Virus record (IMG/VR): IMGVR_UViG_3300027749_000141
Span: 1 to 53,506 of that record
Source of the DNA: a virus
Taxonomy: Duplodnaviria; Caudoviricetes
Length of the DNA: 53,506 bases
Strand: one strand, 5' to 3'
Each line of letters opens with the position of its first letter. Positions within the stretch are counted from its first letter, which is position 1. A program made the translations under genes and the position numbers. Below, one piece after another: positions 3,379-38,502 of the stretch. The notes beneath the pieces are model-generated. The model was not told where the DNA came from. It searched no databases and saw only the letters and a list, made by a program, of their open reading frames with translations.

Positions 3379-6045
3379 ATGTCATATGTAGACGCATGGT
3401 TCGACCGCGACAACGATATTATCAAAGTTGTCGAGCGAAACGCTAAAGGCGAAAGGGAATTTAAAGATATAGCAGTTAAACACACGTTATACTATAAAGA
3501 TCCAAAAGGCAAGTACCAATCTATTTACGGAGACCCTGTTTCAAGAGTCATTTGTAAAAATACCAAAGAGTTCCGCAAAGAACAAGCAATTAATAGTGGA
3601 AAACAACTGTTTGAATCAGATATTAATCCATTATTTGTTTGCTTATCAGAAAATTATCTAAACATCGATGCACCGAAATTAAACGTTGCGTTTTTTGATA
3701 TCGAGGTGGACTTTGATCCAGAACGTGGTTATGCATCACCGGATGATGCATTTATGCCAATTACTGCAATCGCTGTCCACTTACAGTGGCTAGACACATT
3801 AATATGTCTTGCAATTCCTCCAAAGACATTAACCATGGAAGAAGCACAAGAACAAGTCAAGGAATTTCCAAATACAATACTGTTTAAAAAAGAAGCCGAT
3901 TTATTAGATGCATTCTTAGATCTAATTAAAGATGCTGATATATTGAGCGGCTGGAACAGCGAAGGGTTCGATATTCCGTATACAGTAAATCGTGTTATTA
4001 AAGTGTTATCAAAAGACGACACTCGCAGATTCTGCTTGTATAATCAGTTACCAAAACGCAGAGAATACGAAAAATACGGTAAAGATGCTGTTACCTATGA
4101 CTTAGTCGGTCGTGTACATTTAGATAGTTTGCAACTGTACCAAAAATACACCTACGAAGAACGGCATAGCTATCGATTAGATGCTATTGCAGAATATGAA
4201 TTAGGTGATCACAAAACGCAATACGAAGGCACTCTTGATCAATTATACAACAATGACTTTAAAACATTTATTGAATATAATAGACAAGATACTATGCTAT
4301 TAGATAGATTAGACAAAAAGTTAAAATTTATTGATCTAGCTAATGCTATTGCACACGAAAACACAGTATTACTGCAAACTACCATGGGTGCAGTGGCGGT
4401 GACAGAACAAGCTATCATCAACGAATCGCATCGTAGAGGTTTTGTAGTCCCAAACCGTACTAAAAAAAGTGATCGTGAAGATACTGCTGCTGCAGGTGCG
4501 TATGTTGCATACCCAAAGGAAGGTATCCATGACTGGATAGGCTCACTCGATATTAACTCACTGTATCCTAGTGTGATTCGTGCATTGAACATGGGACCAG
4601 AAAGTGTGATCGGCCAGTTAAGACCAATCAAAACTGATGCATATATCCAAGGACAGATGGCTAAGGGTAAATCGTTTGCTGCTGCATGGGAAGGATTGTT
4701 TGGTACCTTTGAATACGAATCCGTGATGAAACAAGAAATAGGCACAGATTTGACCATTGATTGGGAAAACGGCGAAAGTGATGTAGTTAGTGCTGCAGAA
4801 GTGTATAGGCTAATGTTTGAAAGCAATCAACCGTGGATGCTTAGTGCGAACGGGACGATATTTACCTGGGAGAAAGAGGCAGTCATTCCAGGATTATTAA
4901 AACGTTGGTATGCAGAACGTAAAGAAATGCAAGTCAAATTAAAAGAAGCAATTAATGCAGGTAATAAAATTGAAGAAGAATACTGGGACAAACGACAGTT
5001 AGTTAAGAAAATTAATTTGAACAGTCTATACGGTGCTATTCTTAATCCAGGATGTAGATTTTTTGATAAACGTATCGGACAATCAACTACGTTAACTGGC
5101 AGGCAGATTGCTAAACATATGGCTGCTAAGGTAAATGAGATAGTAACCGGTGAGTATGATCATTTAGGTAAATCGATTATCTACGGTGATACTGATTCGT
5201 GTTATTTTAGTGCGTATCGGACACTAAGAGTAGATATTGAAAACGGTAGTCTACCTTGGACTAAAGAAACCGTAACTCAACTTTATGATCAGATCAGTGA
5301 TGAAGTTAACGGAACATTCCAGCAGTTTATGTTAGATGCGTTTCATTGTCCTAAAACACGCGGTGAAGTTATCAAAGCAGGGCGTGAGATTGTTGGCAGT
5401 AAGAGCTTATTCATTACTAAAAAGCGGTATGCAGTGTTAGTATACGATAAAGAAGGTAAACGTAAAGACAAGGACGGCAAACCTGGTGAAATTAAAGCCA
5501 TGGGCTTAGATTTAAAGCGCAGTGATACTCCAGAATTTATTCAAGACTTTTTAAGCAACATATTAGAAATGGTACTTACTGGACACTTAGAACAAGAAGT
5601 TTTAGATTTTATCTCTGAATTTAGGTCGCGATTTAAATTAAGACCTGGGTGGGAAAAAGGTACACCAAAACGTGCAAACAACATTACTAAGTTTCTCAAT
5701 AAAGAAACAAAAGAAGGTAAGGCAAATATGCCAGGCCATGTTCGAGCAAGTCTAAACTGGAATACATTGAAACGAATATACGACGACAAGTATTCTATGA
5801 GCGTAACAGATGGTGCAAAAGTTATCGTTTGTAAACTTAAACCAAATCCATTAGGGTACACAAGTGTTGCATACCCGGTGGATGAATTAAGATTGCCACA
5901 ATGGTTTAAAGACTTACCATTTGACCATGCAGAGATGGAAGCCACAATTATCGACAATAAATTATCAAATTTAATCGGTGTATTAAATTGGAGATTAGTC
6001 GATACTGAAGAAAAAACTACATTTAATAGCTTGTTTGAGTTTTAA
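3379..6045 (+). CDS. polB: Family B DNA polymerase with 3'-5' exonuclease (T4 gp43-like)
   Basis: Exo motifs FFDIEVD, GWNSEGFDIPY, YNRQD; polymerase motifs DINSLYPS, KINLNSLYG, YGDTDS, KKRYA; 888 aa with no intein-sized insert. Confidence 0.97.
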   Translation: MSYVDAWFDRDNDIIKVVERNAKGEREFKDIAVKHTLYYKDPKGKYQSIYGDPVSRVICKNTKEFRKEQAINSGKQLFESDINPLFVCLSENYLNIDAPKLNVAFFDIEVDFDPERGYASPDDAFMPITAIAVHLQWLDTLICLAIPPKTLTMEEAQEQVKEFPNTILFKKEADLLDAFLDLIKDADILSGWNSEGFDIPYTVNRVIKVLSKDDTRRFCLYNQLPKRREYEKYGKDAVTYDLVGRVHLDSLQLYQKYTYEERHSYRLDAIAEYELGDHKTQYEGTLDQLYNNDFKTFIEYNRQDTMLLDRLDKKLKFIDLANAIAHENTVLLQTTMGAVAVTEQAIINESHRRGFVVPNRTKKSDREDTAAAGAYVAYPKEGIHDWIGSLDINSLYPSVIRALNMGPESVIGQLRPIKTDAYIQGQMAKGKSFAAAWEGLFGTFEYESVMKQEIGTDLTIDWENGESDVVSAAEVYRLMFESNQPWMLSANGTIFTWEKEAVIPGLLKRWYAERKEMQVKLKEAINAGNKIEEEYWDKRQLVKKINLNSLYGAILNPGCRFFDKRIGQSTTLTGRQIAKHMAAKVNEIVTGEYDHLGKSIIYGDTDSCYFSAYRTLRVDIENGSLPWTKETVTQLYDQISDEVNGTFQQFMLDAFHCPKTRGEVIKAGREIVGSKSLFITKKRYAVLVYDKEGKRKDKDGKPGEIKAMGLDLKRSDTPEFIQDFLSNILEMVLTGHLEQEVLDFISEFRSRFKLRPGWEKGTPKRANNITKFLNKETKEGKANMPGHVRASLNWNTLKRIYDDKYSMSVTDGAKVIVCKLKPNPLGYTSVAYPVDELRLPQWFKDLPFDHAEMEATIIDNKLSNLIGVLNWRLVDTEEKTTFNSLFEF

Positions 6046-7039: not shown

Positions 7040-7376
7040 CAGTTTAAAAATATTAATCGAACTATTTGATGTTGCACTAGAATCAGATAATCCTGCTGTT
7101 AAAAAAGCATTGAAAAATCTGTTGCTAGTTGCAACGTTAGTTCACAGTGAAAACGAAAAACCTCTACGTGGCCCGTTGTATGCACTTGTTAATGAAGTCG
7201 AAACGCTAAAGAAGAATTTTACTATATTGTCAATGGAGTTCAAGCAAGCAGAACACGACCGCAAAATTGGCAAACTTCCGGTATCTAGTGGCAACGGGAG
7301 TGGGCAATCCTATCAATATCCTTATTTACAACAAAGTAGTTATTTAAAAGAATTAACCAGCTGGGGTTTAAAGTGA
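7029..7376 (+). CDS. Hypothetical protein
   Basis: 115 aa ORF overlapping both neighbours in operon orientation. Confidence 0.6.
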   Translation: MEDNSLKILIELFDVALESDNPAVKKALKNLLLVATLVHSENEKPLRGPLYALVNEVETLKKNFTILSMEFKQAEHDRKIGKLPVSSGNGSGQSYQYPYLQQSSYLKELTSWGLK

Positions 7377-9106
7377 ATAGAGACTTAACTACTGCGCAGA
7401 AAGATTATGCAATTTTTTTGCCAGCAACATCAGGGTTTTACTCGACATTTATCGGTAAACAACGATATAGCAATTATGTCGATCCTGCCCGCATACCAAC
7501 TTCATTTAAAAGCGGTATGGCAAGTCTTAACTACTTAGAACCAGATAAGGGTGCATTTTACTACAACTGGTGTTTATACTCTGCAGGACACGCTAACTTA
7601 GACCTTAACAAGTATGACGAAAGCGAAGATATGTTCCGTAATAGAGATAGAAGTACTAGTTGGGTGCTAGGCGACTCAGGAGGGTTCCAGATTGGTAAAG
7701 GTGTATGGGAAGGCGAGTGGCGCGATCCGACTAGTGCAGTTGTGCAAACAAAAATGGCTGAGTGTATTGCAAAAGGAATAGAAACTGTTCCTGTACTTGA
7801 CAAAGACGGTAATCCCATTGTTAATAAAAAAGGTATTGCCAGGACTACTAAAATCGATCATGTTAAAGTCTATCAGGCACGTTTAGATGCTGCTCAAAAG
7901 AAAAGAGAGCAAGTGTTAACGTGGATGGATGCGTTAATGGATTATGGCATGGTACTTGATATTCCAGCGTGGGTTGAAAGAAGCCCTGCAGGAAGATTAG
8001 CAACAGGAATTACAAGCTACGACGAAGCAGTCGAAGCAACGATTTATAATAATGAATACTTTATGAAACATCGTAACGGAAACTGCAAGTTCTTAAACGT
8101 ACTACAAGGCGAAACACACGCACAAGCCGATGACTGGTACAGTAAGATGAAAGATTTTTGCGATCCTGCAAAATATCCAGACAATCATTTTAACGGATGG
8201 TCGATGGGTGGACAAAATATGTGTGATGTTCACCTTGTCCTTAAAAGACTAGTAGCATTACGCTTTGACGGTTTATTAGAAACAGGACTGCATGATTGGA
8301 TGCACTTTTTAGGCACGAGTAAATTAGAATGGGCATGCTTGTTAACTGACATCCAACGTGCTGTTAGAAAATATCATAATCCTAACTTTACTATTAGCTT
8401 CGACTGTGCAAGTCCGTTCTTAGCAACTGCTAACGGGCAAATATACATTCAGACAGAAACCGAAGATAGGAAAAAATGGGTCTATCGAATGGTACCAAGT
8501 GTTGACAATAAAAAGTATGCACTTGACACTAGGTTGTTTAAAGATGCTGTTATACAAGATGGAATTTTTAAGAATTTTGAATCAAGTCCGTTGATTGACC
8601 AAGTGCAAATCAAAGATGTCTGCATATATGCACCAGGTGATTTAAATAAAATTGGCAAAGAAGGTAAAACTTCTTGGGATAGTTTTAGTTATGCAATTCA
8701 AATGGGGCACAATGTGTGGAGCCATCTTAATGCAGTGCAAGAAGCAAATCGTCAGTACGACAATGGTAAATATCCTGCCATGATGGTTGCAAGCAAAGTC
8801 GAAGGAAAAAAGTTTCGGCAGTACAGTAGAAACTTCTTTAAAGATATAGTCGATGACATATTTGCAGCAGATACTCGAGATAAAGCAAACGCAATTATCG
8901 AACAGTATAACAGATATTGGATGGATATTCCAGGAACACGCGGTGCAATTGGTGCAAAGACTGTTAATTCGTCAACACAATTTGCCGTTTTCTTTGACGA
9001 AGAAGAGGATGATAGTGTACACTTAGAACACGGGGGCGAGCTTGAAGACAACATCGAACAAGCTGAAGCTATTTTAGATGAACTTGAACAGAGTGTAAAG
9101 GCATGA
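7373..9106 (+). CDS. dpdA: DpdA/TGT-family guanine transglycosylase (7-deazaguanine insertion into DNA)
   Basis: TGT-fold motifs GDSGGFQ, MVLDIP, FLNVLQG, GWSMGG, HFLG, ISFDCASP; clustered with folE, queE and a T-fold gene next to replication genes. Confidence 0.85.
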   Translation: MNRDLTTAQKDYAIFLPATSGFYSTFIGKQRYSNYVDPARIPTSFKSGMASLNYLEPDKGAFYYNWCLYSAGHANLDLNKYDESEDMFRNRDRSTSWVLGDSGGFQIGKGVWEGEWRDPTSAVVQTKMAECIAKGIETVPVLDKDGNPIVNKKGIARTTKIDHVKVYQARLDAAQKKREQVLTWMDALMDYGMVLDIPAWVERSPAGRLATGITSYDEAVEATIYNNEYFMKHRNGNCKFLNVLQGETHAQADDWYSKMKDFCDPAKYPDNHFNGWSMGGQNMCDVHLVLKRLVALRFDGLLETGLHDWMHFLGTSKLEWACLLTDIQRAVRKYHNPNFTISFDCASPFLATANGQIYIQTETEDRKKWVYRMVPSVDNKKYALDTRLFKDAVIQDGIFKNFESSPLIDQVQIKDVCIYAPGDLNKIGKEGKTSWDSFSYAIQMGHNVWSHLNAVQEANRQYDNGKYPAMMVASKVEGKKFRQYSRNFFKDIVDDIFAADTRDKANAIIEQYNRYWMDIPGTRGAIGAKTVNSSTQFAVFFDEEEDDSVHLEHGGELEDNIEQAEAILDELEQSVKA

Positions 9107-9624
9107 ATAGAGACTATACTGGTGTAACAACAGACGATGCTACTTTTTTTATAGGTAAAGAAATAGAACATACACCCGCATACGGAAAGAAAACGTTGTT
9201 TATAGTAGGCAGACATTCGGTAGGAGACATTGAACATCACATCGACAGCACCATTGAACATTTGTTCTTTGGTGCGAACCATAGCTTTAATCCAGAACGA
9301 CAAGATTATGCAGCATGGGCCGAATGGGAAGACATGATTACATATTTTCTCAACCTTGGCTATCTGTGTAGTTTAGATATTCCACTAAGTGCAACTGAAG
9401 AATTTCACGACGGCAGCTTTAACGAGTATAACAACTTTATACCGCAAATCCGAGTTCCGATTCCTTATATTAGATTTTGGAACTACAACACCATGATTAA
9501 AATCGACGATATCGGTTTTAACTCGACTAATCCGGGTGTATGGACTCACAGTTTGCACGATTTACAAGATCGTGCAAAATTTACTAACTGGGCTGAATAT
9601 AAAAAAGACGAGATCTTAAAATGA
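9103..9624 (+). CDS. Hypothetical protein translationally coupled to dpdA
   Basis: 173 aa, ATGA overlap with the dpdA stop; enzyme-like motifs (GKEIEHTP, HLFFGANHSF, KIDD, NPGVW). Confidence 0.7.
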   Translation: MNRDYTGVTTDDATFFIGKEIEHTPAYGKKTLFIVGRHSVGDIEHHIDSTIEHLFFGANHSFNPERQDYAAWAEWEDMITYFLNLGYLCSLDIPLSATEEFHDGSFNEYNNFIPQIRVPIPYIRFWNYNTMIKIDDIGFNSTNPGVWTHSLHDLQDRAKFTNWAEYKKDEILK

Positions 9625-10049
9625 CAAGAAAAAGAAGTATCTATGCACCCTATGCGCCTACGTGTGTACTACCTGGTTGTGATAACAGAGTTAGTTATCA
9701 TGACATTGTTACAAAAAGTGACGGTACTCCGGGAATCCACTGGAAAGCATGCTGTGAACTGCACCGCAATGAAAACAAAGACGAGTCCGACACATACAAA
9801 CTTTCAAGAGGTTGTGAAAATAAAGACGGTAGGTTAGGTTTAGGTTTTTCATGTGAAAGTACAGCTATTACAGAATCAAGTAAATTAGATTACGATCACT
9901 GGAACGGTAATAGATTTGATCAATCAGAGGATAATATTGTTGTATTATGCAAAGACTGTCATTCAAAAAAATCAGTAATATGCAAAGACAACTTGAACAG
10001 GTATTCCTATGTTAATCCTAATTTTAATGACTTTTTTGAGTTAGTATAA
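9621..10049 (+). CDS. Zinc-binding HNH endonuclease-like protein
   Basis: LDYDHWNGNRFDQSEDNIVVLCKDCHSKK HNH signature; N-terminal CxxxxC...CCxxH putative zinc site. Confidence 0.75.
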   Translation: MTRKRSIYAPYAPTCVLPGCDNRVSYHDIVTKSDGTPGIHWKACCELHRNENKDESDTYKLSRGCENKDGRLGLGFSCESTAITESSKLDYDHWNGNRFDQSEDNIVVLCKDCHSKKSVICKDNLNRYSYVNPNFNDFFELV

Positions 10050-10402
10050 TGACAAATAAAATGATATTTGTCACTTTTAAGAAAGAAGGAATACATCATT
10101 ACCCTGATGCGTTATCTAACCCAGCGTTAGCAGATGTGTCATTTTTAGGTCTTCCGCACCGACACATGTTTCACTTCAAAGTTTGGATTAGTGTAGTACA
10201 CAATGATCGAGATATTGAATTTATATTGTTTAAAAGATGGTTGACTTCATTATACAATGATGCTATACTTGAACTTAACAACAAAAGTTGTGAGATGATC
10301 AGCGACGATTTACATGATGTTATATATCAAAAATACCCAGATCGCAAGATTTGGATTGAAGTCTCCGAGGACGGAGAAAATGGTTCTTTCATTCAATACT
10401 AA
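10049..10402 (+). CDS. dpdL: QueD-like T-fold protein of the DpdL type (proposed CDG decarboxylase)
   Basis: LGLPHRHMF fits LxxxHRHxF (recalled DpdL signature) in place of QueD CxxxHGH; T-fold features SCEMI and IEVSEDGENG. Confidence 0.65.
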   Translation: MTNKMIFVTFKKEGIHHYPDALSNPALADVSFLGLPHRHMFHFKVWISVVHNDRDIEFILFKRWLTSLYNDAILELNNKSCEMISDDLHDVIYQKYPDRKIWIEVSEDGENGSFIQY

Positions 10403-10416
10403 AAGGAAAACACAAA

Positions 10417-10653
10417 ATGGCTAAAAACTACAAAACATTTTCATACTTAGAATCACGCCCAGATGTTGTTAAGATTTTTGAAGATCTTGAAGCATTTCAT
10501 GATTTTTGTAGAATTGAGTTACGTAAGTTTGATCCAGCAGATTTGTATCGCAAGGATACAAAATCATACGGGGCATACTTAGCAAGCAAACGCCCACGTA
10601 AACCGTACCAAGGTAGCAAACCTTGGAACAAAAACAAGTTTAACAAATCGTAA
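10417..10653 (+). CDS. Small basic hypothetical protein
   Basis: 78 aa, AAGGA SD, K/R-rich C-terminus. Confidence 0.65.
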   Translation: MAKNYKTFSYLESRPDVVKIFEDLEAFHDFCRIELRKFDPADLYRKDTKSYGAYLASKRPRKPYQGSKPWNKNKFNKS

Positions 10654-10657
10654 GACA

Positions 10658-11740
10658 ATGAGTAGAATCTTTCTTGTTGATTTAGAAGCAGTTGAGACAA
10701 GATACACAGGTGAGTGGAAAGACCACTTGCCTGCGGTTCTCACTAACCAAGGACATCATGTTACTATTATTTCTGGACCTAATGACATCCCTAGTGCAAC
10801 TACTCCAGGTGCCTTTCTTAATTTTGGTGGGACTAACATTTATAAGGCCAACCAAGTTGAACAAATCGGCCGATTATTTTGCAATGGTGACATCCAGCCA
10901 AATGATCATTTTATTTTTACTGATGCATGGCACCCCGGTATCATTAACTTAAAATACATGAGTGAGTTACTGGGTATTCCAGTAACTATACATGGCTTAT
11001 GGCATGCTGGCAGTTATGATCCACAAGATTTTTTAGGACGACTTTGTGGCCATCAGCCCTGGGTTGATAGTGCCGAACGCAGTTTCTTTTATGCGTTTGA
11101 TTATAACTACTTTGCTACAGATTTTCATATTGACATGTTCGCAGAGAATCTGCTTAGACTACAACCAGCTACTGTAAGAGCATGTTATATGAATGAAGAA
11201 AATCAAAAGTTTGTACGCACAGGTTGGCCTATGGAATATATGGCTACTGTGTTAGACCCATATAAAGGCACAGAGAAACGTGATCTTATATTATTTCCAC
11301 ATAGAATTGCACCCGAAAAACAAGTTGAAATTTTTAAAGACTTGCAATCACGGTTACCGCAATATGATTTTGTAATTTGTCAGGAACAACAGCTAACCAA
11401 AAGTGAATATCACAAATTACTAAGCGAAGCAAAAATTGTGTTTAGTGCAAACTTACAAGAAACATTAGGTATTAGTTGTTACGAAGGTGCATTACTTAAT
11501 GCAATACCAATGGTTCCTGATAGATTAAGTTATGTTGAAATGTACAATCTACATTTTAGATACCCGTCAGAATGGACTGAAAGTTTCGAATCATATCAAA
11601 CACACAGCGTTAAATTGTGCAATACTATTATTAACTATATAGAAACATATGACGAATTAGTTCCTGCTATAGAACATCAGGCACACTTCTTAACACAGCA
11701 GTTCTTTTCAGCAAATAAATTATATGACAACATCAAATGA
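10658..11740 (+). CDS. GT-B (GT4-like) glycosyltransferase resembling GTDC1/QTMAN (DUF3524) proteins
   Basis: LILFPHRIAPEKQ and FSANLQETLGISCYEGALLNAIPMVPDRLSYVEMY; E-x7-E donor-binding motif. Confidence 0.8.
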   Translation: MSRIFLVDLEAVETRYTGEWKDHLPAVLTNQGHHVTIISGPNDIPSATTPGAFLNFGGTNIYKANQVEQIGRLFCNGDIQPNDHFIFTDAWHPGIINLKYMSELLGIPVTIHGLWHAGSYDPQDFLGRLCGHQPWVDSAERSFFYAFDYNYFATDFHIDMFAENLLRLQPATVRACYMNEENQKFVRTGWPMEYMATVLDPYKGTEKRDLILFPHRIAPEKQVEIFKDLQSRLPQYDFVICQEQQLTKSEYHKLLSEAKIVFSANLQETLGISCYEGALLNAIPMVPDRLSYVEMYNLHFRYPSEWTESFESYQTHSVKLCNTIINYIETYDELVPAIEHQAHFLTQQFFSANKLYDNIK

Positions 11741-12098
11741 TAATTCAATAACAATTACCGGAATAAGTGGAAATAGCATAACATCTACTCCGTATACTAT
11801 ATCAACTATGGCTTCAGATACAATTACATTTCCTTACACTAACTCTAACTCGGGTACATTTACTATTAACAGCGGATCTGGATATGGTACAATATCATCA
11901 TCTTCTTCTATGTATGATTCTATTCATAGCGACTGGTCGTTTGTTCCGTTTAGTAACTCTTGGCCAGAATATGTTGATTTTCAAAAAATGGCTAAAGAGT
12001 ACCCCGGACTTGAAATTGCCTACGAAAAGTTAAAAACTACATACAAACTATGCATCGATGACTGGGAAGAACAGAAAAGGAATAAAAATGGCAAATAA
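11724..12098 (+). CDS. Hypothetical protein with S/T-rich N-terminus
   Basis: 124 aa; low-complexity N-half and C-terminal KMAKEYPGLEIAYEKLKTTYKL helix. Confidence 0.6.
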   Translation: MTTSNDNSITITGISGNSITSTPYTISTMASDTITFPYTNSNSGTFTINSGSGYGTISSSSSMYDSIHSDWSFVPFSNSWPEYVDFQKMAKEYPGLEIAYEKLKTTYKLCIDDWEEQKRNKNGK

Positions 12099-12591
12099 AC
12101 TATATTACAGCTGGTCACAAATAGAAGGAGCATGTTTAGAAATTGTTAGACAGCTTGCTGCCGATAATTGGAAACCTGATTACATCGTTGGTATAACACG
12201 CGGTGGTGCAGTTCCTGCAGTGTTAATTAGCCAATACACCGGAATTCAAATGAAACCGTTAGAAGTTAGTCTACGAGACAATGGCGACTGTACAACTGAT
12301 TGCGGAATGGCCGAAGATGCGTTTAATCGAAAACAAATTCTCGTAGTTGATGATATTAATGACTCGGGCGCAACTATTGCTTGGATTAAAGATGACTGGA
12401 TGCAGTCTACGATGCCAGATCATGTATCCTGGGAAACAATTTTTGGCAGCAATGTTAGATTTGCTACAGTGTTTACAAAAGCATCTAGCAAAGAAACTGT
12501 TGAATATTCAGTAGAGGAAGTTGAAGACAGCACTTGGGTCGTGTTTCCTTGGGAAGACTTTTGGAGGAATGATGTCAGATTTAACAATTAG
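12088..12591 (+). CDS. Type I purine phosphoribosyltransferase (xanthine/guanine PRT-like)
   Basis: IVGITRGG, PRPP-binding motif ILVVDDINDSGAT, C-terminal WVVFPWE; start moved to ATG 12088 (AAGGA SD). Confidence 0.85.
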   Translation: MANKLYYSWSQIEGACLEIVRQLAADNWKPDYIVGITRGGAVPAVLISQYTGIQMKPLEVSLRDNGDCTTDCGMAEDAFNRKQILVVDDINDSGATIAWIKDDWMQSTMPDHVSWETIFGSNVRFATVFTKASSKETVEYSVEEVEDSTWVVFPWEDFWRNDVRFNN

Positions 12592-12742
12592 AGAACTAAA
12601 AGAAAAACTAAAAATGGTAACTCAGGATCTGCAAAATTTATCCGCAACCGGTGAAAGTATTCGCAAGATTGATGTGCTAACGCAGTACAAAGAATACATC
12701 GAAGATGAGATAAAATTTCTCTCTTCGGTTGACAAGACCTAA
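12572..12742 (+). CDS. Small coiled-coil hypothetical protein
   Basis: GGAGG SD at 12563-12567 before ATG 12572; heptad-like sequence. Confidence 0.5.
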   Translation: MSDLTIRELKEKLKMVTQDLQNLSATGESIRKIDVLTQYKEYIEDEIKFLSSVDKT

Positions 12743-12757
12743 ATAATGTTGTACAAT
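12729..12757 (+). promoter_or_regulatory. Sigma70-type promoter upstream of folE with embedded TAAATA motif
   Basis: TTGACA (12729-12734), 17 bp, TACAAT (12752-12757); ACCTAAATA at 12737-12745. Confidence 0.8.
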
Positions 12758-12780
12758 TAAAAACAATTTAAGGAATATTA

Positions 12781-13452
12781 ATGGCACACAATTCATCAAA
12801 AACAGATCCAGTATTAGGCAAATTAGTTCACGAGCATTTAGTTAAATTAGGTGTAGAAACGCCAGTAACAGAAAAACTGTTAACATCATCAGAAAAAGTT
12901 AATATCATTCAAGATAAGTTTTATGATATTATGGTAGCGTTAGGATTAGATTTATCCGACGACAGTCTAGCAGACACGCCTAAACGTGTTGCAAAAATGT
13001 TTGTCAACGAAATATTTTGGGGACTCGATTATGACGCATTTCCGAAATGTACTACTATTCAAAATAAAATGGGATACAATGAAATGTTGATTGAACGCAA
13101 CATTAACGTGCAAAGTAACTGCGAACATCACTTTGTAATAATCGACGGGCTAGCAACAGTTGGGTATATTCCAAAAGATGTTGTACTTGGTCTAAGCAAG
13201 ATTAATCGGGTAGTTGAATACTTTTCAAAACGTCCGCAAGTACAAGAAAGATTAACAGAACAAGTATTCCATGCATTAGAATATATTTTAGATACTGATA
13301 ATATTGCAGTAGTTATTGATGCAAAACATTATTGTGTTGCTGCAAGAGGTGTAGAAGATACTGGCAGCTCTACTGTTACCAGTAAACTAGGCGGTGCATT
13401 TAAAAACGATCCAACTACTCGTGCAGAATTTATGAGTATTGTTAACAAGTAA
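12781..13452 (+). CDS. folE: GTP cyclohydrolase I
   Basis: DTPKRVAKM, SNCEHHF, GLSKINRVV, RPQVQERLT, HYCVAARGV. Confidence 0.97.
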   Translation: MAHNSSKTDPVLGKLVHEHLVKLGVETPVTEKLLTSSEKVNIIQDKFYDIMVALGLDLSDDSLADTPKRVAKMFVNEIFWGLDYDAFPKCTTIQNKMGYNEMLIERNINVQSNCEHHFVIIDGLATVGYIPKDVVLGLSKINRVVEYFSKRPQVQERLTEQVFHALEYILDTDNIAVVIDAKHYCVAARGVEDTGSSTVTSKLGGAFKNDPTTRAEFMSIVNK

Positions 13453-13460
13453 GGAACTTT

Positions 13461-13901
13461 ATGAAACTAGAACCACAAATTCCAGCAGTAGGCATTACAC
13501 AAACGCACGACTGGGGCAAAAGTAAAATGTATGCGATTCGATGCGAATGCGGCAACACCGACGATGAAATTGAATTCATAGTAGAAGCCGACGAGTACAA
13601 TGTCACTGTTACTACATGGACGACTCAGAAAACTGTATATTGGGATAGACCAATCGATCTGCAAACTGCATATAAAATTAAAAATTCATTTCTAAGCAGT
13701 GCAACTTATGAAGTATTAAGTTTTCTAAACGGATTCCATCACCGACTTAAAATGTCTTGGAACTTGTGGTTCAATGGTTATCTTAAATATCAGCAATCGA
13801 CTATAATGTCTACACAACAAGCATTAAACTATGCAGAGGCACTGAAGTCTGCAGTTGAAGATTGCCAAGAATTTCGTAAACAGGATAAAGAATGTCAATA
13901 A
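13461..13901 (+). CDS. Hypothetical protein between folE and queE
   Basis: 146 aa, AAGGA SD, CECG motif; no QueD signature. Confidence 0.6.
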   Translation: MKLEPQIPAVGITQTHDWGKSKMYAIRCECGNTDDEIEFIVEADEYNVTVTTWTTQKTVYWDRPIDLQTAYKIKNSFLSSATYEVLSFLNGFHHRLKMSWNLWFNGYLKYQQSTIMSTQQALNYAEALKSAVEDCQEFRKQDKECQ

Positions 13902-14746
13902 AAGTATCAGAATTATTTTACTCAATACAAGGCGAAGGACGCTACATGGGCGTCCCGTCTGTGTTTTTGCGAACGTTCGGCTGTAATTTTAAATGCCAAG
14001 GCTTTGGTGTGCCTAAAGGCAGTTTAAGTGGCGAAGCAGATGTTATTGCCGAAAAACAAGTAAAATATAACAAGTGGAAATCCTATGAAGAATTACCACT
14101 TGTATCTACCGGTTGCGATAGCTATGCAAGCTGGCATCCAAAGTTTAAGGATTTATCACCTACTATCAGGATTACCGACTTAGCTGCTAAAATTTTAGAC
14201 TTACTGCCAACTAAAGATTGGCAAGGTGAACATCTTGTTATTACAGGTGGCGAGCCATTGTTAGGCTGGCAGCGTAACTATCCGGATTTATTATCGCACA
14301 CATTGATGAGTAAATTAAAAGAGATTACGTTTGAAACAAATGGCACGCAACCACTAACTCCGGATTTCAAAAGCTATTTACAGAATTGGGGCATGCGACA
14401 CGGAAAAGATTCAATTACTTTTTCTGTTAGTGCTAAATTGAGTTGTTCAGGTGAACCTGCACACCTTGCAATCAAACCTGAAGTGGTGTGTGAATACGAA
14501 GAAGTCGGTTATGCATATTTAAAATTTGTAATTTCAACAGAAGAAGATGCAGAAGAAGCAATCGAGACTGCCGACATATATCGTGCTGCGGGATTTACAG
14601 GGCCGGTGTATTTAATGCCAGTAGGCGGTGTAACCGATGTGTATAATCTAAACTGCAAACGTGTCGCAGATATTGCATTAAAAAATGGGCTAAGGTACAG
14701 TGATAGGTTACACTTGCCACTATTTGGAAATAGTTGGGGAACATGA
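13892..14746 (+). CDS. queE: 7-carboxy-7-deazaguanine synthase (radical SAM)
   Basis: ELFYSIQGEG, FLRTFGCNFKC...GCDS, VITGGEPLL, FETNGT, YLMP, SDRLH. Confidence 0.92.
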   Translation: MSIKVSELFYSIQGEGRYMGVPSVFLRTFGCNFKCQGFGVPKGSLSGEADVIAEKQVKYNKWKSYEELPLVSTGCDSYASWHPKFKDLSPTIRITDLAAKILDLLPTKDWQGEHLVITGGEPLLGWQRNYPDLLSHTLMSKLKEITFETNGTQPLTPDFKSYLQNWGMRHGKDSITFSVSAKLSCSGEPAHLAIKPEVVCEYEEVGYAYLKFVISTEEDAEEAIETADIYRAAGFTGPVYLMPVGGVTDVYNLNCKRVADIALKNGLRYSDRLHLPLFGNSWGT

Positions 14747-17793: not shown

Positions 17794-18882
17794 ATGAGTG
17801 AAATTTCAAATCGTACTATTGGCCCAAGCAGCACTAAAAAAGCGTTACGTAAAGCGTTTTCTAGCAAACGTCCTGTATTTATTTGGGGTCCTCCAGGTAT
17901 TGGTAAATCAGACATTATTAAACAATTAGGCAAAGAAATGCCTAACACATTAGTTAAAGATGTGCGTTTAAGTTTGTGGGAGCCAACTGATATTAAAGGT
18001 ATTCCATTTTTTGATTCAAACAGCGGCACTATGCGTTGGGCTCCTCCTGCAGAATTACCAGATGACGAATTAGCAAGTCAATATGACAGTATCATTTTGT
18101 TTTTAGACGAGATGAACTCTGCGGCGCCAAGTGTACAAGCGGCATCATATCAATTAATTTTAGATCGTCGTGTTGGCACTTACCAATTGCCAGATAATGT
18201 GTTAGTCGTTGCCGCAGGTAACAGAGAAGCAGACAAAGGTGTTACTTATCGTATGCCAACTGCGTTATCAAATCGTTTTGTGCATTTGGAAATGGCAGTT
18301 GATTGGAATGACTACTTTGACTGGGCAACCGAAAACAAAGTTCACAAAGATGTTGTCGGTTTCTTAACTGGAAACAAACGTGATTTACACGACTTTAACC
18401 CAAAAACAAGTGGCCGTTCGTTTGCAACGCCTCGTTCATGGTCATTTGTTAGTGAGTTATTAGCAGATGACGACTGTGACGAGGAAACATTGCTTAACTT
18501 AATGTCAGGTGCAGTTGGCGAAGGATTAGCTATTAAATTTAACGCACACCGCAAGATTTCAAGCAAATTGCCAGACCCAACTGATATTTTGTCAGGACGT
18601 GTAAAGAAAATGGAGTCTAAAGAAATTTCTGCAATGTACTCTTTAACTATTAGCTTATGTTACGAGCTAAAAGATGCATGCGATAAAAAAGCCAAAGACT
18701 TTAATGCACAAGTTAACAACTTTTTTGACTTTATGATGACAAACTTTGAAACTGAGTTAGTTATTATGGGTTCAAAAATTGCGTTATCGTCGTACAAACT
18801 GCCATTAGATGTTGACGAGATTGCATGCTTTGAAGAATTTCACACTAAATATGGCAAATATATTTCGGCTGCAACTGGCTAA
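17794..18882 (+). CDS. MoxR-like AAA+ ATPase
   Basis: Walker A GPPGIGKS, Walker B ILFLDEMN, AAGNR, ALSNRF, TPRSW. Confidence 0.92.
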   Translation: MSEISNRTIGPSSTKKALRKAFSSKRPVFIWGPPGIGKSDIIKQLGKEMPNTLVKDVRLSLWEPTDIKGIPFFDSNSGTMRWAPPAELPDDELASQYDSIILFLDEMNSAAPSVQAASYQLILDRRVGTYQLPDNVLVVAAGNREADKGVTYRMPTALSNRFVHLEMAVDWNDYFDWATENKVHKDVVGFLTGNKRDLHDFNPKTSGRSFATPRSWSFVSELLADDDCDEETLLNLMSGAVGEGLAIKFNAHRKISSKLPDPTDILSGRVKKMESKEISAMYSLTISLCYELKDACDKKAKDFNAQVNNFFDFMMTNFETELVIMGSKIALSSYKLPLDVDEIACFEEFHTKYGKYISAATG

Positions 18883-18895
18883 AATGTAAAATAGA

Positions 18896-18924
18896 TTGAC
18901 ACCGCCTACGGGCGGTGTTATACT
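18896..18924 (+). promoter_or_regulatory. Sigma70-type promoter whose spacer is a GC-rich hairpin
   Basis: TTGACA (18896-18901), 17 bp, TATACT (18919-18924); ACACCGCC-TACG-GGCGGTGT at 18899-18918. Confidence 0.7.
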
Positions 18925-18957
18925 TTATACATATTAACAACATTAGGAAATAAAATC

Positions 18958-20142
18958 ATGTCAAGTTTAGACCCAATCGTAGATAAAATTATTGTTGCTC
19001 GCGTAGGCCTGTTGTTGCGTCATCCATTTTTTGGTAATATGGCAACACGTCTTAAAATTCAAGAAGGATCAGAATGGTGCAAAACTGCAGCCACTGACGG
19101 TCGTTCTGTATTTTTTAATCGCGAGTTTTTTCAAAAATTAACAATTAAAGAAATTGAGTTTGTACTTGCTCACGAGATTCTGCACAACGTATTTGATCAT
19201 ATGGGTCGAAGAGAAGGCCGCCATCCAAAAATTTTTAATATTGCCGCTGACTTCTGTGTAAATGGGCAATTAATACGTGATAAAATCGGTGACGCAGTAA
19301 CAAGTATCCAAATTTATCACAATCCGGATTATTACGGTATGGGTGCTGAAGAAATCTATGATAAGATTTTTGATGAGATGGATGAACAAGAGTTAGATGC
19401 ACTTGGCCAAATGCTTGACGACCATATTGATTGGGAAAAAGAGGACGACAAAGACGGTAAGCCGTGTTACTCAAAAGAAGAATTGCGTGCAATACGAGAC
19501 GAAATACGTGAAGCAACTATGCAGGCAGCACAGGCAGCTGGCTCAGGTAAAACGCCAGCAAGCATTGCACGTTTAATCGGCGATCTTACACAGCCAAAAA
19601 TGAATTGGCGTGAAATCCTACAACAACAAATTCAAAGTGTAATTAAAAATGACTATTCATTTTTACGTCCAAATCGAAAAGGCTGGCACATGAATGCAAT
19701 ATTGCCTGGCTTAAAATTTGACAACACAATTGACATTTGTGTTGCAATTGACATGTCTGGCTCAATCAGTGATGCGCAAGGTAAGGACTTCTTATCTGAA
19801 ATTAAAGGCATTATGCAAGAGTATCAAGATTTTAGAATAAAATTATGGTGTTTTGATACTAAAGTGTACAACGAACAAGACTATGACAGTTACACAATGG
19901 ATGAGTTCGACGAGTACGAACTAATGGGCGGTGGCGGCACTGACTTTGATGCTAATTGGGAATATATGAAAGAGCACGACATTAATCCTAAAAAGTTTAT
20001 CATGTTTACAGACGGCATGCCATGGGATTCATGGGGCGACGAACAATACTGCGATACTATATTCATTATTCATGGCTCTGAAACAATTGTTCCGCCATGG
20101 GGCGAATATGCGTATTATGAAGCAGTCAAGGAAACAGCATAA
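18958..20142 (+). CDS. Metallopeptidase-like plus vWA domain protein (DUF2201-type), MoxR partner
   Basis: TAATDG, HEILH (HExxH), MIDAS IDMSGS, GGGTDF, FTDG. Confidence 0.88.
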   Translation: MSSLDPIVDKIIVARVGLLLRHPFFGNMATRLKIQEGSEWCKTAATDGRSVFFNREFFQKLTIKEIEFVLAHEILHNVFDHMGRREGRHPKIFNIAADFCVNGQLIRDKIGDAVTSIQIYHNPDYYGMGAEEIYDKIFDEMDEQELDALGQMLDDHIDWEKEDDKDGKPCYSKEELRAIRDEIREATMQAAQAAGSGKTPASIARLIGDLTQPKMNWREILQQQIQSVIKNDYSFLRPNRKGWHMNAILPGLKFDNTIDICVAIDMSGSISDAQGKDFLSEIKGIMQEYQDFRIKLWCFDTKVYNEQDYDSYTMDEFDEYELMGGGGTDFDANWEYMKEHDINPKKFIMFTDGMPWDSWGDEQYCDTIFIIHGSETIVPPWGEYAYYEAVKETA

Positions 20143-21330: not shown

Positions 21331-21643
21331 TCAAGGAAAGATTTTACCACAGGAAGTGGTAGACCTTTGGCCTGAAGTATTTGAGGGGATTAAGATTAAA
21401 TCTTTACCCCTCAAATATTTAGAATCAGTTTCGATAAATTTTAAAGATGGAAAAAGTTGGGAAGTTAAACTAACAGCTAAAGCAAAAAAAGACGGATGGG
21501 ATGTTTTTTGTAATAGTTTATCCGAATTGCTTTTATCCTACGAAGATCGAATTGATGATATTGACTTCAAGCTAAACACAGTTAGAGTTAAAAAAGACAT
21601 CGAACGATCTACTTCTAAATTCCTAAAAAAACAAAAACTATGA
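21323..21643 (+). CDS. Hypothetical phage protein
   Basis: 106 aa ORF overlapping both neighbours. Confidence 0.6.
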   Translation: MINQGKILPQEVVDLWPEVFEGIKIKSLPLKYLESVSINFKDGKSWEVKLTAKAKKDGWDVFCNSLSELLLSYEDRIDDIDFKLNTVRVKKDIERSTSKFLKKQKL

Positions 21644-22341
21644 CAGTAAAAATAGTATCATACTCGCAACCAACAGAAGAATTTGCAAACCAAGGTATTG
21701 CAGATGCACAGGATTTAATTGCATTTTGTGCAAGAGTTTCTAATCCATCAAATCAATTTAACACCGAAACTTCAGATAAATTGATTCGATATTTAATTAA
21801 CCATAAACATTGGTCACCACTTGAAATGGTAAACATTTGTTTAGAAGTTGAAACTACCCGTGATATCGGTAGACAAATTTTAAGACATGTTAGTTTTCGT
21901 TACCAAGAATTTAGTCAACGATATGCAGATCCAACAAAGGATCTTAATTTTGTAATTAGAGAAGCACGATTACAAGATACTAAAAATAGACAAAACTCAG
22001 TCGAGCTTGATATGACCAATGCAGATCATAGAGAAATCTCAAAGATCTGGATTGAAAAACAACATACTGTAATTAAGGCTGCAAAGGATGCGTATGCATG
22101 GGCAATTGCAAATAACATTGCAAAAGAACAGGCTAGAGTAGTGTTGCCCGAAGGCAACACTGAAAGTAGAATGTATATTAGTGGATCGTTGCGTTCATGG
22201 ATACACTTTATTCAAGTACGCACAGACGCATCAACTCAGAAAGAACATAGATTAATAGCGTTAGAATGCGCTAAAGTTATTTCTAAAATATTTCCAATGG
22301 CTGAAGAGTTTGTACACAAAGAATCAGAAACAACTAGTTGA
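21640..22341 (+). CDS. thyX: FAD-dependent thymidylate synthase
   Basis: ARVS, HWSPLE, RQILRHVSFRYQEFSQRY (RHx7-8SxR signature), KEQARVVLP, TQKEHR. Confidence 0.95.
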   Translation: MTVKIVSYSQPTEEFANQGIADAQDLIAFCARVSNPSNQFNTETSDKLIRYLINHKHWSPLEMVNICLEVETTRDIGRQILRHVSFRYQEFSQRYADPTKDLNFVIREARLQDTKNRQNSVELDMTNADHREISKIWIEKQHTVIKAAKDAYAWAIANNIAKEQARVVLPEGNTESRMYISGSLRSWIHFIQVRTDASTQKEHRLIALECAKVISKIFPMAEEFVHKESETTS

Positions 22342-36831: not shown

Positions 36832-38502
36832 TTATAGATCGTTTTGATAAACCCAAACGCCACTACGCAATTCATAGGCTCGGATTGTTAGTACTCCACT
36901 TGCTGTGCAACATGCTCGGCAAATTGGACCATTAACACCTGCAACCGAATGCTCTGCAGGCGGAAATAATTTATTTAAATATATCGAAGCAATTTGAAGA
37001 ATTGTTAGGCCAGTAGTATCCAATGAAACTACTAACGCTTGTTGTTTAACTGTATTATATAATGTAAGAAAATTAACTGCGTCATTATCATCTGTAGGAG
37101 TTGCAAGATTTGTAATTTTTTTACTACTCACATCCACAGTGCCTGTACCTTTTGGTTCTAATATAATAGTGCCGTTTGCTTGCGAATTATTAACATAACT
37201 AATTGTTGTATCGTTGACATTTAAATTGTCAACTTGTAACGAAGTTAGCGTGCCTATACTAGAAAGACCAGGAGCCGATGTAATTGTCGATCCTAATGCA
37301 GAAGAAGTTAATACTGCAGTGTTGTTAATTTTATATGTTTTACCCGTAACTAGATTAAACGATTCTGACGAAGTCCAACTTAGTGATAATAAGTCCCAAG
37401 TTAACGTTTTATTGATATCAGTACCTGCAGCAATACTAATCCCTGATCCGTCTGCAGTAGTGTTAGTTGGGGTTGTAGTTTTTGCTAACAGGATAACTTT
37501 ATCTGAAATTTCTAAATTAGTAGTGTTAATTGAGGTCAATGCACCGATAACGTTTAAACTTCCTTGAATAACAACATCTCCATTAACATCCAATGTTGCT
37601 GTGGGATTATTTTTAAATATGCCCACTCTTTGATTAACAGTGTTAACATGTATACTAGGTAATAATTGATTATTATGTAACACATTAATTTGAAAATTTT
37701 GATCAGCTGAATTTGAATTAATTTTACATATTAAATCATCAACTACAATTTCAGTATTACTATTTGTCCCTAAAATTAACGGGGTTCTTTTTTGTATAGA
37801 CAATGTGCCAACAATTGCTGAATCTGCGTTATTTGCAACAACTGCATCAGCAGTTACAACTGTGCCCGACGAGTCGACTAATGATTCTGCACGAGTTGCA
37901 GTAGTGTTAAATTTAATACCTGCGTATTCGCTCGCGTTAAAACCAATTTTAATAATTCCAGAATACCCTGAAATATTAACAGAAGGGGTAAACATAGTTT
38001 TACTAAATATACCAATTAACGAAGTCGAAATATACAATAATAATATAGTATGATTAATGTTACTAGTGTCCAGCACATCAACAGTTTTAAATCCTGAGGT
38101 ACCTTGTTGTGCGTTATATTGCGGTCCGATTAATACCGGCGAAATACCATTGTAAAAATAAAGCTGTTGGCGGACACTGTCAATCCAAAAATCGCCTGCA
38201 GATATTGAACTCGGTGGGGTATTTTGATAAAACGCGCCACCGCTAACTCTAAAAGTCAACCCGTCATACACTTTTAATCGGTTATCAGTTAGGTCAAACC
38301 AAAGCTGCCCAGTAATTGGTTTATTAGGCTGCGCAGTACTTGAAAAATTCTCTAATAAATGAATAAAATTTTCATTTAAAAATTCTCCATACGAGCTAAA
38401 ATTTTTACCAATTAATGTCAAATCTGTTGTTGTCTGATCAATTACCCCGTCGATAATCTCTGTTATTTTTGACCCATCGGTCTTATTTAAAATGTAACTC
38501 AT
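36832..38502 (-). CDS. Tail fibre/baseplate-associated protein
   Basis: Shared N-terminus LIGKNFSSYGE..NENF..LLENF; fibre motifs VGI...NPTATLDVNG and KKITNLATPT...DAVN. Confidence 0.75.
   Translation of the reverse strand: MSYILNKTDGSKITEIIDGVIDQTTTDLTLIGKNFSSYGEFLNENFIHLLENFSSTAQPNKPITGQLWFDLTDNRLKVYDGLTFRVSGGAFYQNTPPSSISAGDFWIDSVRQQLYFYNGISPVLIGPQYNAQQGTSGFKTVDVLDTSNINHTILLLYISTSLIGIFSKTMFTPSVNISGYSGIIKIGFNASEYAGIKFNTTATRAESLVDSSGTVVTADAVVANNADSAIVGTLSIQKRTPLILGTNSNTEIVVDDLICKINSNSADQNFQINVLHNNQLLPSIHVNTVNQRVGIFKNNPTATLDVNGDVVIQGSLNVIGALTSINTTNLEISDKVILLAKTTTPTNTTADGSGISIAAGTDINKTLTWDLLSLSWTSSESFNLVTGKTYKINNTAVLTSSALGSTITSAPGLSSIGTLTSLQVDNLNVNDTTISYVNNSQANGTIILEPKGTGTVDVSSKKITNLATPTDDNDAVNFLTLYNTVKQQALVVSLDTTGLTILQIASIYLNKLFPPAEHSVAGVNGPICRACCTASGVLTIRAYELRSGVWVYQNDL

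Follow-up and report, generated by a model that had tools for sequence, protein, structure and literature searches.

Eight 7-deazaguanine bases are known in modified DNA, and none of them is glycosylated. The described system closest to the one considered here is that of Cellulophaga phage phiST, which encodes FolE, QueD, QueE, DpdL and DpdA3, and in whose DNA 2'-deoxy-7-deazaguanosine (dDG) replaces all G, at 302,000 per 10^6 nucleotides (Table 1 of PMC10516641). Here, we describe a gene cluster at positions 7373-14746 of IMG/VR virus record IMGVR_UViG_3300027749_000141 (Duplodnaviria; Caudoviricetes); the window is the whole stretch of 53,506 bases that was analyzed. The cluster has gene content of the phiST type, together with a glycosyltransferase (GT). 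What is new is that this GT tracks DpdA and DpdL across phages and bacteria, while the system itself would be a variant of known deazaguanine modification. We give an even chance to the reading in which these genes form a module for 7-deazaguanine DNA modification of the DpdL type, with an obligate GT, and virion DNA would carry a glycosylated 7-deazaguanine.

The likeness to phiST consists of a route from GTP to 7-carboxy-7-deazaguanine (CDG) without QueC, a DpdL with the motif LxxxHRHxF, a divergent inserter of the tRNA-guanine transglycosylase (TGT) superfamily, and a position of the deazaguanine genes next to replication genes. In contrast, phiST has no homologue of the GT, of a 173-aa protein or of a phosphoribosyltransferase (PRTase) found in the window, and its DpdA3 has 259 aa where the window's DpdA-like protein has 577. 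Nearer in sequence are the clusters of the cultured phages PA5oct (Pseudomonas), ACP17 (Acidovorax), BUDD and X1 (both Xanthomonas), BCSR5 (Burkholderia) and Phosso (Sinorhizobium), which share a homologous GT (21-50% identity), DpdL (46-56%), QueE and FolE. PA5oct and Phosso also have the long type of DpdA (28-34% identity), and PA5oct has the order polB-clamp-DpdA in common with the window, whereas ACP17 and BUDD have a shorter DpdA of the Vibrio nt-1/KVP40 type and the PRTase was detected only in PA5oct, weakly (22% identity). Resistance to several G-containing restriction enzymes is reported for PA5oct DNA, which is also struck by sensors of hypermodified DNA (PMC12191111). In the part of that report drawn on here, its authors infer a modified G and note genes for QueE and PTPS, but not the GT, DpdL or DpdA, and give no chemical identity. 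The literature searched contained no paper on Phosso.

Three further systems help to place the GT. The T4 alpha- and beta-glucosyltransferases, which have GT-B folds, can be likened to it by function, as phage sugar-nucleotide transferases that act on an already modified DNA base and counter restriction; however, their target is a pyrimidine (hydroxymethylcytosine) and they need a dCMP hydroxymethylase, whereas the window has ThyX and no ThyA-family gene. HuiG, a PF13439 glycosyltransferase, puts N-acetylglucosamine on the 2-amino group of a 7-deazapurine (PMC7439116; bioRxiv 10.64898/2026.04.15.718813), and an N2-borne sugar occurs in huimycin and dapiramicin (PMC7439116). It resembles the present GT, by description only, in being encoded with FolE, QueD and QueE homologues and in glycosylating a 7-deazaguanine-type base, but its substrate is a free O-methylated preQ0 and its actinomycete secondary-metabolite cluster is without DpdA or TGT. 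Tubercidin clusters are described as having no QueC and as encoding, besides the enzymes for CDG, a decarboxylase, a GMP reductase and a PRTase of PF00156 (sections used of bioRxiv 10.64898/2026.04.15.718813). They share with the window the branch point at CDG without QueC and the PF00156 PRTase, and some relatives of the window also have a GMP-reductase-like gene after the PRTase. They differ in using a UbiD-type decarboxylase instead of a T-fold protein, in having no transglycosylase or glycosyltransferase, and in their product, a free adenosine analogue. An earlier note on this DNA had put forward that no glycosylated deazaguanine is known in DNA, and the literature that we searched (without supplementary tables) likewise described neither such a base nor this GT.

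Results

The GT is linked to DpdA and DpdL in phages and bacteria

Our lineage set consisted of 80 IMG/VR loci, of which 46, those with 5 kb or more of sequence downstream of the DpdA-like gene, were taken as assessable. The GT, DpdL and the 173-aa protein are present in all 46. A tblastn search of 50,697 phage records with the GT matched 22, and 17 of these matches were strong: PA5oct-like phages (11 records), ACP17 (two), BUDD, X1, BCSR5 and Phosso. All 17 fall within the 28 phage records that are positive for DpdL. The GT of the cultured phages lies within one or two genes of DpdA, DpdL, FolE or QueE, in an order that varies by lineage. The remaining five matches, in PhiXhv-type Xanthomonas and Erwinia phages, were partial; at the one such locus inspected (PhiXhv-12), the GT relative is surrounded by amino-sugar genes, and no deazaguanine gene lies within 7 kb.

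We also scanned bacterial and archaeal genome assemblies with a profile of a 38-sequence GT alignment, which returned 27 loci. Nine were binned contigs of the same phage lineage. In each of the other 18, a DpdA homologue adjoins the GT, and 10 of them have DpdL as well; FolE and QueD were not found nearby, and a QueE-like gene occurs within 8 kb in at most one (L131, a weak match). Record titles of these 18 include Pelagibacterium, Azospirillum, Shimia, Sulfitobacter and Magnetospirillum, and the alphaproteobacterial chromosomal contigs (L114-L131) carry compact GT-(DpdL)-DpdA units (e.g. L129:7977-11088). Across all 27 loci, DpdA was detected in 23; in each of the other four, the contig breaks off within 2 kb upstream of the GT. 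The DpdA neighbour in Magnetospirillum aberrantis (536 aa) belongs to the same long TGT-like family as the window's protein (hhalign 100%, E 3.7e-47); an ordinary sensor histidine kinase gene lies approximately 2.3 kb upstream of that locus, and another neighbour has no relatives. Based on the contents of the bacterial and phage loci, the conserved core is the DpdA-like enzyme and the GT, usually with DpdL, while the precursor genes and the PRTase are add-ons.

The earlier note had set the co-occurrence of dpdA, dpdL and the GT across phages as a check on its proposal, and the association is complete in the lineage loci (46 of 46) and the strong phage records (17 of 17), and extends to DpdA at 18 of 18 bacterial loci. 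Its expectation that the GT would go with dpdA and dpdL rather than with a pyrimidine hydroxymethylase is also borne out. The window encodes ThyX (PF02511, E 1.2e-42, 21640-22341) and has zero matches to the ThyA-family model PF00303. A ThyA-family gene, scoring 338-360 bits, lies 5-15 kb from the cluster in three of five long related records (31-70% complete); these scores look like those of ordinary ThyA. Within the lineage, one thymidylate synthase thus seems to have been exchanged for a non-orthologous one. As for the note's description of a candidate new system, the GT linkage is indeed new, but the system is not unique to this phage, being already present, unremarked, in PA5oct, ACP17, BUDD/X1, BCSR5 and Phosso.

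The 577-aa protein is a putative DpdA

Searches of Pfam at E <= 0.01, PHROGs, NCBIfam and PDB sequences with the 577-aa protein returned zero matches. Its family is nevertheless large: at least 7,762 metagenome proteins belong to it at E <= 0.001 among 8,000 scored candidates, and an exhaustive search gave 938 cluster representatives. An alignment of 66 sequences has nine invariant residues, including D101, S102 and G104 (of a DSGGFQ motif), D196 and D344. None of the 66 sequences departs from the three aspartates, which hhalign places on DSGGFQ, DEC and FDC of Tgt. In TGT enzymes the active-site aspartates, which have catalytic roles, lie in the motifs DSGGFQ, (F/L)D(E/x)(C/P) and FDC. Profile comparison by hhalign gave 88% probability against E. 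coli Tgt (66-sequence profile, E 2.9e-6, 202 columns), 96% against ACP17 DpdA (E 2.9e-9), 94.5% against the BUDD 'queuine tRNA-ribosyltransferase' and 83% against phiST DpdA3, the last a partial alignment of 85 columns. Moreover, both in the window and in the phages PA5oct and Vibrio 2.275.O, members of the family adjoin deazaguanine-synthesis genes. From these profile matches, the aspartate motifs and the gene context, we accept the 577-aa protein as a putative long and divergent DpdA-like enzyme of the TGT superfamily, and presume that it exchanges guanine and 7-deazaguanine in DNA.

The family member of Vibrio phage 2.275.O (29% identity; L093:5905-8835) lies beside QueF, a YhhQ-type transporter, QueC, GATase and FolE, and this locus is a different deazaguanine pathway that uses the same inserter family. 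We considered a 370-aa neighbour of the TGT-like gene there as a possible GT and ruled it out (hhalign 0.3%; it has a weak amidoligase match). At its C-terminus, the window's protein has a strongly acidic tail of approximately 40 residues (8900-9106). It is pure conjecture that this tail, together with the gene position after polB and the clamp, might reflect docking of the DpdA-like protein on replication proteins.

DpdL has the published signature

The 117-aa protein has LxxxHRHxF in place of CxxxHGH, which is the change that separates DpdL from QueD according to Cui et al. 2023 (PMC10516641). In alignment it is 37% identical to phiST DpdL and 52% to ACP17 DpdL, and the blocks SCE and SEDGEN are common to all three. 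Its only match in Pfam, PHROGs and NCBIfam is a PHROG of unknown function (Table 1). The DpdL-like T-fold protein proposed earlier is hence confirmed by the published motif and the alignment. Among the papers searched, Cui et al. 2023 alone treats DpdL together with deazaguanine. In the sections of that paper used here, CDG decarboxylation by DpdL is put forward as a proposal only, and coexpression of DpdA and DpdL of phiST or ACP17 in E. coli is reported to yield no dDG, for which the authors allow that further enzymes may be needed (PMC10516641).

The 360-aa protein resembles GT4-like glycosyltransferases

Searches of Pfam, PHROGs, NCBIfam and PDB sequences gave no match for the 360-aa protein. 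Among the 38 lineage members, 11 match Glycos_transf_1 at E <= 1 (the best at 0.0021), and the homologues of BUDD and BCSR5 pass this model (45.7 and 42 bits; cut-off 26.4). The lineage profile aligns with the BUDD homologue over 285 columns (hhalign 99.8%, E 1.5e-28). An EX7E motif and a basic R/K pair define this type of enzyme. In all 38 lineage sequences H215, R216, K221, E268 and E276 are invariant (an HR..PEK block and EX7E), and in 14 sequences drawn from all lineages R216, K221 and E268 are invariant and E276 nearly so; several N-terminal, acceptor-side motifs are also kept across all lineages. In the Atlas, the GT falls among viral clusters, one of which is auto-named family 1 glycosyltransferase and another of which has Glycos_transf_1 in 29% of its members. 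JGI tags some homologues as 'glycosyltransferase involved in cell wall biosynthesis'. We found no longer, fused forms of the GT, which is weak evidence. The protein appears to be a divergent Glycos_transf_1-type (GT4-like) glycosyltransferase with an intact EX7E donor site.

Precursor genes and PRTase

FolE is firmly assigned (Table 1). The 284-aa protein is matched by five NCBIfam QueE models at E 5e-10 to 6e-14, with 39-52 bits against cut-offs of 200-300; the best scores 52.1 bits against a cut-off of 260 and stays below equivalog level, and Radical_SAM reaches 25.3 bits against 29.5. However, C31, C35, C75, TGGEP and ETN are invariant in eight phage QueE-like sequences, including the annotated QueE of phiST, ACP17, BUDD, BCSR5 and PA5oct, and the protein is approximately 30% identical to the annotated QueE of PA5oct, BUDD and ACP17. 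We note that it has an insertion of approximately 39 residues between the second and third cysteine. It is likely a QueE.

The earlier note had found no queC, queF or canonical queD. For the window this stands: six-frame scans gave zero matches for PTPS/QueD and for QueC, and for QueF only a sub-threshold 13.5-bit match inside folE. Beyond the window it holds for QueC, absent from all five long relatives, but not for PTPS/QueD, which three of the five encode tens of kb from the cluster. Apart from the GT, these are the genes from which phiST makes dDG. With no QueC, the pathway would stop short of preQ0, which fits the CDG-derived base that had been proposed.

The PRTase scores 47.2 bits for PF00156 (cut-off 26.3) and 62.5 bits for the NCBIfam xanthine PRTase (under the cut-off of 138), and its closest relatives of solved structure are purine PRTases from archaea and the bacterial xanthine-guanine phosphoribosyltransferase (1vdm, E 3.7e-12). 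Of the 28 lineage loci that extend 10 kb or more downstream, 27 have FolE, 23 have QueE and 23 have the PRTase; at the ACP17, BUDD, BCSR5 and Phosso loci the PRTase was not detected. The embedded PRTase described earlier is therefore present and of the Gpt type, but not part of the core.

Relatives carry further genes. A gene of the GMP-reductase/IMPDH family (PF00478, E 1.3e-69) directly follows the PRTase at L009:17272-18303, and also in L007 and L008; it fits either guanine recycling or a tubercidin-like nucleotide route. A MazG-like gene of approximately 90 aa stands just before queE in seven lineage contigs (e.g. L038:20422-20703, L009:18628-18894). A gene for a 258-aa UDP-glucose/GDP-mannose-dehydrogenase-like protein follows the GT in six lineage loci, and can also stand between polB and the clamp. 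The window has none of these three genes. The PA5oct cluster encodes a 172-aa protein (EST35_0320, L001:11419-11937) that matches the epimerase/dehydratase model PF01370 with 29.6 bits (cut-off 20.9), over the N-terminal half of the profile only. We count such sugar-nucleotide-type enzymes inside some clusters as support for glycosylation.

The window's FolE is 31-41% identical to that of most lineage relatives, 85-98% to that of L021 and L002, and 61% to ACP17 FolE; at the DNA level, its gene matches PA5oct-like folE at approximately 65%. These uneven identities suggest that folE may have been replaced by a foreign copy in the window's sub-lineage.

Small proteins and an HNH gene

The 173-aa protein accompanies the DpdA-like gene as constantly as the GT does, and in ACP17 its homologue (33% identity, E 1.3e-19) is encoded immediately upstream of DpdA. 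Neither the Atlas, a PDB profile search nor Pfam run on 19 members gave a lead to its function, and hhalign comparison with neighbouring small open reading frames (ORFs) of PA5oct, BUDD and BCSR5 was negative. The Phosso 'glycosylase' was considered as a homologue and ruled out, as the two are not homologous. The 78-aa protein is present in 45 of the 46 assessable loci, always immediately upstream of the GT, whereas the 124-aa and 146-aa proteins are found in 17 and 11; none of these three has a family match in Pfam, PHROGs or NCBIfam.

The 142-aa HNH protein has weak matches (20.2 bits against a Pfam cut-off of 21.4; PHROG HNH families at 2e-5), and its gene stands between the 173-aa gene and dpdL in just one of the 46 loci, that of the near-identical relative L002. 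This rarity points to a recent, homing-endonuclease-like mobile insertion, and we do not retain the gene as the cluster member that it had been taken for.

Layout of the cluster and the window

The cluster is one compact, co-directional run of overlapping genes that follows polB and a clamp-like gene (Table 1), and here the layout and gene identities given in the earlier note hold. In lineage loci that extend far enough, polB is likewise upstream of the cluster. The 259-aa clamp-like protein has no match in a Pfam search and is 37% identical to a PA5oct protein at the same position. A scan for promoters and terminators found no excess over shuffled sequence. At 10001-12000, which spans dpdL, the GT and the 124-aa gene, GC skew is 0.001 and AT skew 0.042, versus approximately 0.10-0.15 in neighbouring plus-strand genes.

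Table 1. Features of the modification cluster and its context; coordinates refer to the window unless a locus is named.
Feature	Coordinates	Strand	Evidence or remark
Family B DNA polymerase (polB)	3379..6045	+	PF00136 E 6.7e-38, PF03104 E 8.8e-19; context, outside the pathway
Sliding-clamp-like protein, 259 aa	6051..6830	+	Phosso homologue (33% identity) annotated as sliding clamp beta; context
DpdA-like enzyme, 577 aa	7373..9106	+	hhalign to Tgt/DpdA, three Asp motifs
Conserved protein without assigned family, 173 aa	9103..9624	+	accompanies the DpdA-like gene
HNH homing-endonuclease-like insertion, 142 aa	9621..10049	+	weak HNH matches; outside the pathway
DpdL, QueD-paralogous T-fold protein, 117 aa	10049..10402	+	LxxxHRHxF motif; phrog_17812 E 1.1e-33
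Small basic-tailed protein without family, 78 aa	10417..10653	+	directly upstream of the GT
Divergent Glycos_transf_1-type (GT4-like) glycosyltransferase (GT), putative, 360 aa	10658..11740	+	remote homology, EX7E
Ser/Thr-rich protein without family, 124 aa	11724..12098	+	variably present
Gpt-type 6-oxopurine PRTase, 177 aa	12058..12591	+	PF00156 E 1.9e-12
GTP cyclohydrolase I (FolE), 223 aa	12781..13452	+	PF01227 E 2.5e-60; phrog_2197 E 1.4e-73
Protein without family, 146 aa	13461..13901	+	variably present
QueE-like radical-SAM enzyme (7-carboxy-7-deazaguanine synthase family), 284 aa	13892..14746	+	sub-threshold models and motifs
UDP-glucose/GDP-mannose-dehydrogenase-like protein, 258 aa	L038:15473-16249		N-terminal and central domains only

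The window is a linear record with a CheckV completeness estimate of 14%, and contigs that reach approximately 375 kb carry homologues of its genes; it is a fragment of a jumbo phage. With an estimated 14% of a genome covered, absence of a gene from the window is weak evidence about the phage as a whole. The replication and modification block is followed closely, at 17794-20142, by a gene for a MoxR-like AAA ATPase and then a DUF2201 metallopeptidase-like and VWA-like gene. On the minus strand, a 4,013-aa ORF with CBM_5_12 and FG-GAP matches (41335-53376), possibly longer as its frame is open to the end of the window, adjoins a gene (38502-40676) whose 724-aa product includes a phage tail collar domain; these are probably giant tail-fibre or adhesin genes.

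Discussion

In the pathway that we propose, FolE and the QueE-like enzyme would supply CDG from GTP, with QueD encoded elsewhere in the genomes of relatives, and DpdL would act on CDG, decarboxylating it to 7-deazaguanine if the published proposal holds. The DpdA-like enzyme would exchange guanine in DNA for the deazapurine, and the GT would add a sugar from a nucleoside diphosphate sugar to the deazapurine, acting either, like HuiG, on the base while it is still free, or, like the T4 enzymes, on the base once inserted in DNA. The Gpt-type PRTase most likely would recycle the excised guanine, together with the GMP-reductase-like gene where one is present. The likely benefit would be protection against restriction and other DNA-targeting defences. 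In favour of this proposal, the GT stays adjacent to DpdA and DpdL, despite shuffling of gene order, in at least six phage lineages and at 18 of 18 bacterial loci, which is hard to explain without a shared substrate. That a sugar-bearing deazaguanine is present in DNA is, in our estimate, an even call or slightly worse. The broader claim is that a core of long DpdA, DpdL and GT4-like enzyme makes glycosylated 7-deazaguanine in the virion DNA of this globally abundant jumbo-phage lineage and of PA5oct, ACP17, BUDD/X1, BCSR5 and Phosso, and that the same core in alphaproteobacterial chromosomes maybe marks self DNA; we hold this claim tentatively, as rather more doubtful than probable.

Several observations weigh against glycosylation of DNA or against the gene assignments behind it. 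Eleven of the 28 DpdL-positive phage records, including the phiST group, are without the GT, so the GT is not required for deazaguanine in DNA as such. 7-Deazaguanine (DG) and CDG offer no obvious hydroxyl acceptor, which leaves N2, the carboxylate or some side chain yet to be described as sites for a sugar. Whether the sugar ultimately reaches DNA cannot be read from gene neighbourhood, and we infer its place on a DNA base. The decarboxylase role of DpdL is itself a proposal. The TGT model PF01702 fails on the 577-aa protein, and a six-frame scan of the window with it gave zero matches, while the same scan found TGT in 14 of 14 control genomes. Bacterial relatives of the 577-aa protein fail PF01702 as well, and in five of those bacterial genomes the Pfam TGT model recovers only the housekeeping tgt; the assignment depends on hhalign probabilities of 83-96% against single sequences. 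Similarly, the window's own GT fails Pfam (Glycos_transf_1 E 0.19), its profile finds no PDB sequence match, and comparison with E. coli WaaG by hhalign reached probabilities of just 0.7% and 3.8%, in alignments that cover nothing but the region around EX7E.

A first alternative is that the DNA carries plain dDG or dCDG, as in phiST, while the GT acts on a phage or host protein, on the envelope or on a FolE-derived pterin and is a neighbour for regulatory or historical reasons only. The set FolE, QueD, QueE, DpdL and DpdA without QueC equals that of phiST, whose DNA is fully dDG, and the lack of an obvious sugar acceptor, the setting of the distant PhiXhv-type relatives (as inspected in PhiXhv-12) and the cell-wall label from JGI all point the same way. 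We nevertheless consider it unlikely, as the adjacency to DpdA and DpdL outlasts the shuffling of gene order, the acceptor-side motifs of the GT are kept across lineages, and in the published experiment DpdA and DpdL alone yielded no dDG in E. coli (PMC10516641, in the sections used). Less probable again, and in our view improbable, is a tubercidin-like route in which the PRTase ribophosphorylates CDG, DpdL decarboxylates the product, and the resulting 7-deaza-GMP is turned into a dNTP for the adjacent polB to use in replication, leaving the TGT-like enzyme and the GT with accessory or proofreading roles. The gene inventory reported for tubercidin clusters (bioRxiv 10.64898/2026.04.15.718813, in the sections used) speaks for it, as do the PRTase beside FolE and QueE, the GMP-reductase-like and MazG-like genes of relatives, the MazG-like and kinase-like genes that adjoin DpdL in phiST, and the abutment of the cluster on polB. 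However, the PRTase is absent from five of 28 lineage loci and was undetected in ACP17, BUDD, BCSR5, Phosso and all 18 bacterial GT-DpdA loci, while the DpdA-like enzyme and the GT are constant in every locus that lacks it. Moreover, its nearest solved relatives serve ordinary guanine or xanthine salvage, so that with a GMP reductase it equally fits guanine recycling, and Cui et al. 2023 argue, in the sections used, for post-replicative insertion in all known cases (PMC10516641).

The GT might also make a soluble glycosylated deazapurine or pterin, like huimycin or a pterin glycoside, that serves as an inhibitor or cofactor in infection and does not enter DNA. N-glycosylation of a free 7-deazapurine by a HuiG-type enzyme is described, in the parts of the sources cited above, and presumably the combination of FolE, a PTPS-like T-fold protein and a GT also resembles pterin-glycoside pathways. 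We regard this as very unlikely, because the obligate partner of the GT is a homologue of DNA/RNA transglycosylases and not a transporter or tailoring set, the bacterial loci keep only the GT, DpdL and DpdA, and PA5oct DNA itself behaves as modified in the experiments reported (PMC12191111, in the part used).

If glycosylated 7-deazaguanine is indeed made, no sugar-decorated purine would have been known in DNA before it. The strict linkage of a conserved GT with DpdA and DpdL suggests a ninth product that differs in chemistry from the eight known bases. The GT may also explain why DpdA and DpdL gave no dDG in E. coli. The module is common, with more than 7,700 DpdA-like and at least 8,000 GT homologues among metagenome proteins, and several carriers, such as PA5oct and ACP17, are in culture, so that the proposal is directly testable. 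Sugar-bearing purines would probably have a bearing on evasion of restriction and CRISPR and on nanopore and enzymatic handling of such DNA, and could offer a new enzymatic DNA-labelling chemistry. PA5oct is under study for therapy, and modification of its DNA affects its sensitivity to host defences.

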